Positions 18,140 through 18,592 of a DNA stretch of 26,245 bases are shown here, piece by piece (positions within the stretch are counted from its first letter, which is position 1; every line of letters begins with the position of its first letter). The translations under genes were made by a program, and so were the position numbers. A model generated the notes under the pieces. That model did not search any database, had not been told where the DNA came from, and saw nothing but the letters and a program-made list of their open reading frames with translations. The stretch is from a virus (Duplodnaviria > Heunggongvirae > Uroviricota > Caudoviricetes). Where the stretch lies: IMG/VR virus record IMGVR_UViG_2879731240_000002, one strand, 5' to 3'.

Positions 18140-18177
18140 ATCAGCGGTGGCGAGGGATTTCTCCCCCGCCGGGTCTC

Positions 18178-18333
18178 TTACTCCTCAGGTTCGTAAGCTG
18201 TGAAGACAGCGACCTCCGTCTGGCCGGTTCGGATTCGTACCTCGCAGAGGTCTTTCCTCGTTACCAGTGCCGTCACTATGACGGTTAAACAGATGACGAT
18301 AAGGGCGATTAACATCGCCTTTTGCTGCTTCAT
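18178..18333 (-). CDS. hokD: Hok-family type I toxin (51 aa), HokD/RelF-like
   Basis: MKQQKAMLIALIVICLTVIVTALVTRKDLCEVRIRTGQTEVAVFTAYEPEE matches HokD as I recall it. The upstream leader carries hok-mRNA-like elements (GGTGCTTGAGGCTATCTGTCTCAGG; CAAGGAGAAGCAGGCTATG) and a 12-codon upstream ORF. The 70-aa track ORF is an in-frame upstream extension. Confidence 0.85.
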   Translation of the reverse strand: MKQQKAMLIALIVICLTVIVTALVTRKDLCEVRIRTGQTEVAVFTAYEPEE

Positions 18334-18362
18334 AGCCTGCTTCTCCTTGCCTTTCGGCACGT

Positions 18363-18430
18363 AAGAGGCTAACCTACATGTGTTCAGCATGGATTGAGCC
18401 TCAGATTAATGTTAAGCGTCTTGCAGGACG
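18363..18430 (+). ncRNA. Putative Sok-like antisense RNA region (inferred, boundaries approximate)
   Basis: Inferred only from the hok/sok paradigm: antisense to the hok leader 30-100 nt upstream of the hok ATG. No clean promoter or terminator could be defined by eye. Confidence 0.2.
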
Positions 18431-18501
18431 CGTAATGTTAACTGGGGCTTTTCTCTATCTGCCTTTTGGTGTTCATGCCTGAGACAGATAGCCTCAAGCA
18501 C

Positions 18502-18540
18502 CCGCAGTCATTCTACTTAACTAAGATTTCCCTGCAAACC
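18502..18540 (-). promoter_or_regulatory. Putative hok promoter
   Basis: On the minus strand TTGCAG (-35), 16-bp spacer, TAGAAT (-10), about 7 nt before the GGTGCTTGAGG hok-mRNA-like 5' end. Confidence 0.3.
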
Positions 18541-18592
18541 GTTTTTGTCCGGCACAGTAAATATCCAACTAAACCAATAGCGTTCGCTGTAT

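Follow-up and report, generated by a model that had tools for sequence, protein, structure and literature searches.

An apparently complete hok/mok/sok locus of the hokD/hokW lineage in a defective lambdoid prophage on a Shigella flexneri-type chromosome

Introduction

The hokD gene (relF) of Escherichia coli K-12, located in the relBEF operon of the Qin prophage, is co-transcribed with relBE (PMC3598666), and hokD has been described as having lost its activity when a genomic rearrangement took away toxin-antitoxin components (PMC12214031). A hokD-like gene in a 26,245-nt stretch of viral DNA (IMG/VR record IMGVR_UViG_2879731240_000002; hereafter, the window) raises the question whether the same toxin also exists as part of a complete, regulated hok/sok module. 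A preliminary description of the window proposed that it does, that the K-12 gene lacks the corresponding regulatory parts, and that the module may stabilize the prophage remnant in which it lies; it further implied that a hokD gene with such a leader is both rare and new.

Here, we compare the locus with its homologs and analyze the predicted structures of its RNAs. With little doubt, in our view, the minus-strand segment at ~18545-18083 forms a hok/mok/sok type I toxin-antitoxin locus that belongs to the hokD/hokW lineage and is complete in structure; it is lodged in the nin/Q region of what is now a defective lambdoid prophage in a Shigella flexneri-type chromosome, and its mechanism is assigned by homology with plasmid R1 and prophage Sp5. 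All sequence elements of such a system are present and intact, and they come with predicted alternative folds and with covariation among homologs; by analogy with these homologs, the locus would be transcribed, processed, toxic and subject to Sok control.

Results

A hokD gene with a hok-type leader

The promoter, the 5′ tac element, the mok frame, the hok gene, the 3′ fbi element and the terminator all lie on the minus strand, with the Sok gene on the plus strand (Table 1). The peptide had been provisionally assigned to HokD, and the assignment holds: its 51 residues are identical to those of K-12 HokD, and RefSeq gives one and the same accession, WP_000813254.1, to the K-12 gene and to the gene of a strain with 100% identical DNA at this place. 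The elements of a hok-type leader that had been noticed are likewise where they were said to be, namely, GGTGCTTGAGGCTATCTGTCTCAGG at 18502-18478, an upstream open reading frame, which is mok, and CAAGGAGAAGCAGGCT-ATG at 18349-18331, all on the minus strand. The interval originally outlined for the locus, 18140-18560, is too short at the 3′ end of the element, with fbi and the terminator falling outside it. The first 65 residues encoded by mok, including the 19-aa leader, are identical to those of MokW of phage 933W, and the four C-terminal differences are the ones that separate HokD from HokW. The RefSeq annotation of a sequence identical to the window at this place contains the hokD coding sequence only, leaving the leader blank, with no Sok or mok gene.

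Table 1. Features of the hok/mok/sok locus and of its surroundings in the window
Feature	Position	Strand	Sequence or description	Basis or remark
hok/mok promoter	-35, 18538-18533; -10, 18515-18510	-	TTTGCA, 17-nt spacer, TAGAAT	Consensus scan and alignment of homologs
Predicted full-length hok mRNA	18503-18083	-	~421 nt	5′ end from Rfam model start and R1 alignment; 3′ end from terminator
tac	18503-18492	-	GGGUGCUUGAGG	Predicted to pair with fbi in full-length RNA
ucb (anti-SD of mok)	18450-18444	-	AAGCCCC	Rfam consensus structure; constrained folding
mok Shine-Dalgarno (SD)	18402-18399	-	GAGG	Invariant in the 47-locus alignment; 8 nt upstream of mok ATG; paired in closed fold
sokT target hairpin, open form	18402-18365	-		Rfam structure; constrained fold
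mok frame	ATG 18390 to 18178	-	70 codons, MLNTCRLASYVPKGKEKQA + Hok	In frame with hok
hok SD	18346-18342	-	AGGAG	
hok coding sequence	18333-18178	-	51 aa, MKQQKAMLIALIVICLTVIVTALVTRKDLCEVRIRTGQTEVAVFTAYEPEE	Pfam PF01848 HOK_GEF, 81.6 bits (cut-off 22); RefSeq WP_000813254.1
3′ stem-loop	18170-18149	-	GGCGGGGGA-GAAA-UCCCUCGCC	Just past hok stop codon; 96% paired in 47 loci, compensatory changes
fbi	18128-18116	-	CCUCAACGCACCC	12 bp with tac, one bulged C; pair probabilities 0.97-1.0
Intrinsic terminator	18109-18083	-	AACCCGC-UUCG-GCGGGUU, then UUGUUUUUU	Consensus scan
Sok promoter	-35, 18347-18352; -10, 18370-18375	+	TTGCCT, 17-nt spacer, TAACCT	933W sequence identical
Sok antisense RNA	18382-18452	+	Predicted 71 nt	Coordinates transferred from sokW misc_RNA of AF125520
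Small hypothetical gene	Downstream on hok strand			
DUF968 protein	17730-16672	-		
RusA	16671-16306	-		
Antiterminator Q	16315-15626	-		
tRNA cluster	Beyond Q, downstream on hok strand			
Two small ORFs	Upstream of hok, before integrase			
Integrase	19568-20593	+		~1 kb from hok promoter
tRNA-Ser(CGA)	20646-20735			

The leader matches the Rfam family RF01794 (sok/CssrC) over 18503-18328 on the minus strand (118.9 bits, with a gathering score of 59; E = 7.5e-27), and the match runs through the model end to end (positions 1-157 of 157). Although the family is named after the antitoxin sok, its model is oriented as the hok-sense leader.

The sigma70-like promoter proposed upstream of the leader was found as TTTGCA-17-TAGAAT at 18538-18510, the sole such site on a consensus scan of 17900-18800, and 7 nt separate it from the conserved 5′ end. 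Because one site per 900 bp is the level expected by chance (1.1), support for this promoter comes from its position and from the -10 element, which is kept in homologs as TAGAAT, TATAAT or TATATT and aligns with the R1-type hok -10, TATGAT. The same region contains one terminator-like site only (18109-18092 plus the T-run, minus strand), and the two sites bracket the hok unit. A 135-aa open reading frame (17732-18139) that would overlap the terminator was set aside; the RefSeq product in the identical sequence is a 92-aa protein (18010-17732), and the frame has no Pfam match.

Alternative folds of the mRNA and their covariation

The minimum free energy structure of the full-length mRNA (-173.0 kcal/mol) is predicted to be a closed fold-back that contains the 12-bp tac-fbi helix, whereas the same RNA forced to form the tac-ucb stem reaches -161.0 kcal/mol and is, thus, 12 kcal/mol less stable. 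The ucb element is predicted to pair with the mok SD region in the closed form and with tac in the open form. When the RNA is trimmed at its 3′ end (18503-18147), the open form (-133.5 kcal/mol) and the minimum (-135.3 kcal/mol) are 1.8 kcal/mol apart, and tac is predicted to pair either with ucb, forming the tac-stem, or with the adjacent segment 18485-18475, forming a metastable hairpin. Left unconstrained, the trimmed RNA is predicted to fold into the 5′ metastable hairpin in preference to the tac-ucb stem, and the open form is obtained only when it is enforced.

The enforced open fold comprises the tac-stem, the complement of the Sok-terminator hairpin, the sokT hairpin and the hok-SD hairpin; as a prediction, it reproduces the Rfam consensus hairpins and agrees with the R1 model as summarised in PMC9841398. 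The sokT hairpin consists of a GAGGCU/AGCCUC stem, contributed by the mok SD and dcb, and of a CUGAACA loop with the mok start region, and its outer stem is invariant in 47 loci. The stem-loop just past the hok stop codon, at 18170-18149, is expected to be the point at which 3′ exonucleolytic trimming stops.

These structures were evaluated on an alignment of 47 non-redundant loci that included the hokD/W clade, hokC-like Escherichia loci, and loci of Kluyvera, Citrobacter, Photorhabdus, Pantoea and R1. Of the alignment cells, 80.8% are paired in the closed structure, versus ~40% in slid controls, and on 4 of 5 measures none of the 500 shuffles scores as high. The two halves of the tac-fbi helix are 97.9% and 83.9% paired, and columns 41 and 470 within it covary, with U-A in 31 loci and C-G in 12; no other base of tac covaries with fbi, and the base concerned is the one that stays unpaired in the tac-stem. 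Compensatory changes are found in the ucb/SD hairpin and in the 3′ stem-loop, too. The open structure performs similarly, its tac-ucb stem being invariant and 98.8% paired. The energy of the 5′-3′ duplex is moderately unusual, with 16 of 1000 shuffled 3′ UTRs being as good; covariation provides the stronger argument for the fold-back.

The Sok antisense gene

The preliminary description had called for a search for the sok promoter and terminator, and both are present on the plus strand, adding to the 5′-3′ fold-back. The generic sigma70 scan of 17900-18800 did not pick up the Sok promoter because its match to the consensus is too weak; it was located through alignment with R1, where TTGCGC-17-TATCCT occupies the same place, and through the published primers for mutagenesis of the sokW -10. 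These primers alter TAGGTTA, the complement of TAACCTA, a sequence that is unchanged in the window; on our reading, the mutagenesis replaced exactly the Sok -10 of the window type and, with it, abolished antitoxin activity (PMC8621323).

The predicted Sok RNA has a 14-nt single-stranded 5′ tail followed by a long hairpin and UUUU (fold energy, -30.0 kcal/mol) and, judging from its sequence, is a cis-encoded RNA complementary to the mok translation initiation region. It differs from SokW of 933W at a single position, 18425, in the hairpin loop, and the SokW northern probe sequence of PMC8621323 is found unchanged at 18411-18382. In the hokW-sokW system of Sp5, HokW is toxic and is neutralized by SokW made from its own promoter (Takada 2021, PMC8621323), mutation of the sokW -10 frees the toxicity, and both RNAs were seen on northern blots (PMC8621323). 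Thus, the suggestion that the module is complete is borne out at the level of sequence elements, including the Sok gene and the fold-back.

Comparison with 933W, R1 and K-12

We aligned the window with K-12, 933W and an R1-type locus. Phage 933W (AF125520) is collinear with the window from ~18545 to 18113 (~430 nt, ~93% identity), and its GenBank record of 1999 places mokW, hokW and the antisense RNA SokW (71 nt) at the corresponding sites. The two sequences are identical in tac, ucb, the mok SD, sokT, the mok leader, the Sok promoter, the Sok 5′ tail, the hok SD and fbi. By contrast, HokW of 933W/Sp5 differs in 4 C-terminal residues (…FVDYESEK, versus …FTAYEPEE in the window), a few nucleotides differ in the 5′ hairpin and in the 3′ stem-loop, and 933W lacks the intrinsic terminator that follows fbi in the window. 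The hosts differ as well: the Stx2 phage 933W and the Sakai prophage Sp5 stand for inducible Stx phages, whereas the prophage in the window is a remnant.

With the parB locus of R1, the type system, the window shares a common architecture and the predicted tac-fbi, ucb/anti-SD, tac-stem, sokT and 3′ stem-loop structures (for the mechanism, see PMC9841398). The Hok peptide of R1 is only ~44% identical, a published figure for HokW versus Hok. The shared sequence blocks of the R1 type are GCTTGAGGC, GGCAGA-AGA, AGCCCC, GAGGC, AGG-TAGCCTCTTAC, AGCCTCTTAC and CAAGGAGAAG-AGGC-ATG, and in both loci the Sok promoter overlaps the region upstream of hok. The loci differ in that the R1-type mok is, by our own reading of the sequence, out of frame with hok, whereas the mok of the window is in frame, and in that the window has a shorter 5′ hairpin loop and an insertion of ~16-21 nt in the Sok-terminator hairpin. 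The R1 locus resides on a plasmid, and that of the window on a chromosome, in a prophage. Sok of R1 is ~64 nt long, compared to the 71 nt predicted for the window.

In this alignment, K-12 and the window agree at 98.5% identity only over a 264-nt stretch that opens at ~18347 (AGGAGAAGCAGGCT-ATG), 14 nt before the hok start codon, and closes with the terminator. Within this stretch, K-12 shares the hok SD, the coding sequence, the 3′ stem-loop, fbi and the terminator; upstream of it, K-12 has relBE, with the 3′ flank of relE adjoining the junction, and lacks all of the following: promoter, tac, ucb, mok start, sokT hairpin, and Sok RNA region with the Sok -10. Thus, K-12 hokD indeed lacks the regulatory parts, as stated in the preliminary description and in line with the published rearrangement (PMC12214031) and co-transcription with relBE (PMC3598666), and its fbi is an orphan. 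Conversely, the window does not have the relBE-hokD arrangement of K-12, a full leader standing in the place of relE. The downstream neighbors are the same in both cases, a hypothetical gene and a DUF968 gene.

Distribution of the complete form

The 212 nt of promoter and leader that have no counterpart in K-12 were used as a query against 5426 complete E. coli genomes. Matches were obtained in 4546 genomes, with at least 80% of the query covered in 4251 of these, at a median of 2 and a maximum of 8 copies per genome and with 529 places on plasmids; beneath these matches, the RefSeq annotation shows nothing. The identical HokD peptide is encoded by 80 IMG/VR viral contigs; 78 of these contain the leader, and in the other 2 the relE junction of K-12 is seen. 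Furthermore, the locus occurs in 79 deposited phage genomes, where it goes by MokW, host killer protein, HokD toxin and similar names. Given the leader in 4546 of the 5426 genomes and in 78 of the 80 contigs, the complete form is the rule and K-12 the exception, contrary to the implied rarity of a leader-bearing hokD, and most E. coli and Shigella genomes carry the complete form. The relBE-hokD locus of K-12 is, then, a derived state and is unsuitable as the reference for hokD.

The Shigella flexneri locus and cssrC

Over 3153 bp (16681-19833), the window and Shigella flexneri SFBU1023 show 100% identity. CssrB is found in the window, too, at 1004-1183 (230 bits); it shares the strand of the hok leader and lies 17.3 kb away from it. 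In S. flexneri 2a strain 301, cssrB and cssrC lie ~17.8 kb apart on the same strand (PMC3071730). The latter, an RNA of ~340 nt confirmed by northern blot, is encoded between SF2042 and SF2043, and was reported as a novel sRNA in a paper in which the words hok and sok do not occur (PMC3071730). The ~340-nt band fits the 3′-trimmed hok mRNA, for which ~355 nt are predicted.

From this spacing and orientation, rather than from direct alignment with strain 301, the locus in the window is probably cssrC, the seed of RF01794, and would, by the same token, be transcribed in Shigella. For annotation, this means that what is called cssrC in Shigella (an identification that is probable) and what is called sok in Rfam is the leader of the hok-sense mRNA.

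Discussion

The locus in the window is a complete and unremarkable copy of a familiar prophage killer module that combines a toxin with an antisense RNA. The implied novelty is contradicted by the record: mokW, hokW and sokW have been annotated since the genome record of 933W, and the module has been characterized experimentally (PMC8621323). Thus, the locus was already known from the 933W annotation, the experiments on Sp5, the Rfam family and, probably, cssrC.

By homology with hok/sok of R1 and hokW-sokW of Sp5, the module would operate as follows. A constitutive promoter would yield a stable hok mRNA of ~420 nt, in which the 5′ tac would be locked to the 3′ fbi and the mok SD held by ucb, so that the mRNA would be neither translated nor bound by Sok. 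Slow 3′ trimming up to the stem-loop at 18170-18149 would remove fbi; the freed 5′ end would then pair with ucb, releasing the mok SD and allowing the sokT hairpin to form. The unstable 71-nt Sok RNA, transcribed from the opposite strand, would bind this trimmed form through its 5′ tail, block mok translation together with the coupled hok translation and trigger cleavage by RNase III. Once Sok synthesis stops, the membrane toxin HokD would be made.

What such a module might do for its present host is a separate matter. The neighborhood downstream of hok is that of K-12 hokD-ydfU-quuQ. An otherwise 99.7% identical prophage in strain FDAARGOS_944 has exo, dicB and an immunity and replication block, all of which are absent from the window, so that "remnant" is a fair description. 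That hok/sok stabilizes this remnant, as had been suggested, is doubtful. Pedersen and Gerdes, as quoted in 10.1101/2025.08.07.668861, saw no post-segregational killing with the chromosomal hok loci that they tested, and activity in a single copy is, to the extent of that quotation, not guaranteed.

Alternatively, the module could be active as an accessory of the phage life cycle or of defense, accelerating lysis and phage release or causing abortive infection, rather than as a stabilizer of the remnant. Indeed, hokW-sokW of Sp5 speeds growth arrest after mitomycin C treatment and doubles phage release, SokW vanishing on induction (PMC8621323); hok/sok of R1 is quoted, second-hand, as lowering T4 plating; and the position beside the DUF968, RusA and Q genes of lambdoid phages is conserved. 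Such a role would, however, have to be exercised from a prophage that has no immunity or replication genes and in which the integrase lies ~1 kb from the hok promoter. Because this prophage lacks the early region, a role in induction and release could hardly operate in the host of the window, where the module would then be a leftover. We regard an accessory role as a serious possibility, albeit one against which we lean.

A second alternative is that the copy looks complete but is functionally silent and decaying, being either unexpressed or impossible to activate in a single copy, so that it would neither kill nor stabilize. The surrounding prophage is not only a remnant without immunity and replication regions but is also interrupted by IS-like repeats, and a syntenic copy in another genome (96% identical over 3.2 kb) has lost part of tac, which demonstrates that such copies do decay. 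Nevertheless, every regulatory element of the window is identical to that of the functional hokW-sokW, and tac, ucb, the mok SD and fbi are essentially invariant across 63 related copies, which argues for continuing purifying selection; moreover, S. flexneri 301 makes a hok-sense RNA of ~340 nt, cssrC, apparently from the same locus (PMC3071730). A silent copy is, therefore, unlikely. Finally, the notion that hok alone is real and that the leader resembles those of other hok genes by chance or low complexity is effectively refuted by the full-model Rfam match, the base-for-base alignment with 933W and R1-type loci, and the covariation across 47 loci.

A variable patch at the Sok recognition site

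Sequence diversity was calculated over 63 unique, otherwise near-identical loci of the hokD/hokW clade. Most of the mRNA shows hardly any, and tac none at all, but there is a peak at 18401-18372, with π of 0.17-0.32 in 10-nt windows. A 27-nt patch, 18398-18372, has π = 0.256 and 15 alleles among the 63 loci, compared to 0.0155 for hok third-codon positions (a value depressed because the viral set was chosen for an identical Hok peptide), 0.031 for the rest of the leader and 0.062 for the 3′ UTR. The patch coincides with the mok start and the sokT loop, that is, with the complement of the 5′ recognition tail of Sok.

It is conceivable, if rather doubtful, that the patch represents a set of Sok specificity alleles. 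If its diversity is maintained by selection, the Sok of each prophage would control its own hok only, without cross-protection between co-resident prophages, and the alleles would resemble the antisense-RNA incompatibility groups of plasmids. The same diversity could equally result from recombination together with a loosening of constraint on a hairpin loop. A literature search on Sok cross-talk or the recognition loop returned nothing, and the most recent survey of Hok explicitly places Sok and mok outside its analysis. Of 4 multi-copy genomes that were compared, 3 have co-resident copies that differ in the patch, S. flexneri SFBU1023 with its three copies being one of them. The allele found in the window is that of 933W and Sp5.

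Sequence variation in the hok locus

A hypervariable patch (window 18372-18398, minus strand) spans the loop of the Sok target hairpin, sokT, and the start of mok (loci L003-L137 of the comparison), and is the complement of the 5′ tail of the antisense RNA Sok. Among 63 near-identical hokD/W loci, this patch occurs as 15 alleles, and π within it reaches 0.256, as against 0.0155 at hok third-codon positions of the same loci. In 3 of the 4 multi-copy genomes, the patch differs even between co-resident hok copies, and in one allele, a 2-nt deletion leaves mok and hok without a shared reading frame.

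Within the hok coding sequence, the motif TACGAA at codon Tyr47 (window 18190-18195, minus strand) is unchanged in all 47 aligned hok loci, that of R1 included. This site is the counterpart of the published TadA editing site of hokC, hokD, and hokE, in which A-to-I editing recodes Tyr to Cys (PMC12214031).

Five IMG/VR contigs (L075, L088, L116, L126, and L136) encode the identical HokD peptide behind a second leader subtype, which lacks the extension of about 21 nt in the Sok-terminator hairpin and differs in sequence between ucb, the anti-Shine–Dalgarno element of mok, and the mok Shine–Dalgarno sequence.

Copies and junctions in other genomes

The hok locus of the window has a syntenic copy in E. 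coli ECMA0423 (L007), with 96% identity over 3.2 kb. The 5′ mRNA element tac is partly deleted in this copy, where GCGGGTGCTTGAGGC is replaced by GCATGTGGC; L007 exemplifies decay of the hok locus in another genome.

A K-12-type relE 3′ flank joined to a non-K-12, Citrobacter-type hok is present in Kluyvera sp. CHPC 1.2972 (L029:1292-1760), as compared with the loci of K-12 (L002) and Citrobacter youngae (L050). Because this flank is 97.5% identical to that of K-12 and the breakpoint lies at most 3 nt from the K-12 relE-hokD junction, either the relE-hok fusion occurs beyond K-12 or the fusion recombined with another hok gene.

Genomic setting of the locus

CssrB is a chromosome-encoded small RNA of Shigella. 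Together, the matches to CssrB and to the hok leader (Rfam RF01794, sok/CssrC) assign the window to the cssrB-cssrC region of S. flexneri.

Mobile-element, RNA, and integration features in the window
Feature	Position	Strand	Remarks
IS009	44-247		Rfam match; start of window
CssrB	1004-1183	minus	Rfam, full-length match, 230 bits
IS-like repeat pair 1	3611-4154 and 10638-11182		within prophage late region
IS-like repeat pair 2	4509-5281 and 12228-12995		within prophage late region
Four-gene prophage tRNA cluster	15118-15427	minus	directly downstream of Q antiterminator gene
Tyrosine integrase adjoining tRNA-Ser(CGA)	19568-20735	plus (integrase); minus (tRNA)	
Group II intron	23801-25414	minus	RT/maturase ORF and Rfam Intron_gpII match

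The prophage tRNA cluster comprises Gly-UCC, Thr-UGU, Lys-UUU, and a tRNA with a CAU anticodon (Ile in RefSeq). The attachment site of the prophage is likely tRNA-Ser(CGA), and given that only about 1 kb separates the integrase from the hok promoter, the prophage early region is deleted. The IS-like repeats and the IS009 match are consistent with an IS-ridden Shigella prophage remnant. The group II intron encodes an RT/maturase of 507 aa with RVT_1 and GIIM domains, directly downstream of which lies the Intron_gpII match (64.9 bits).
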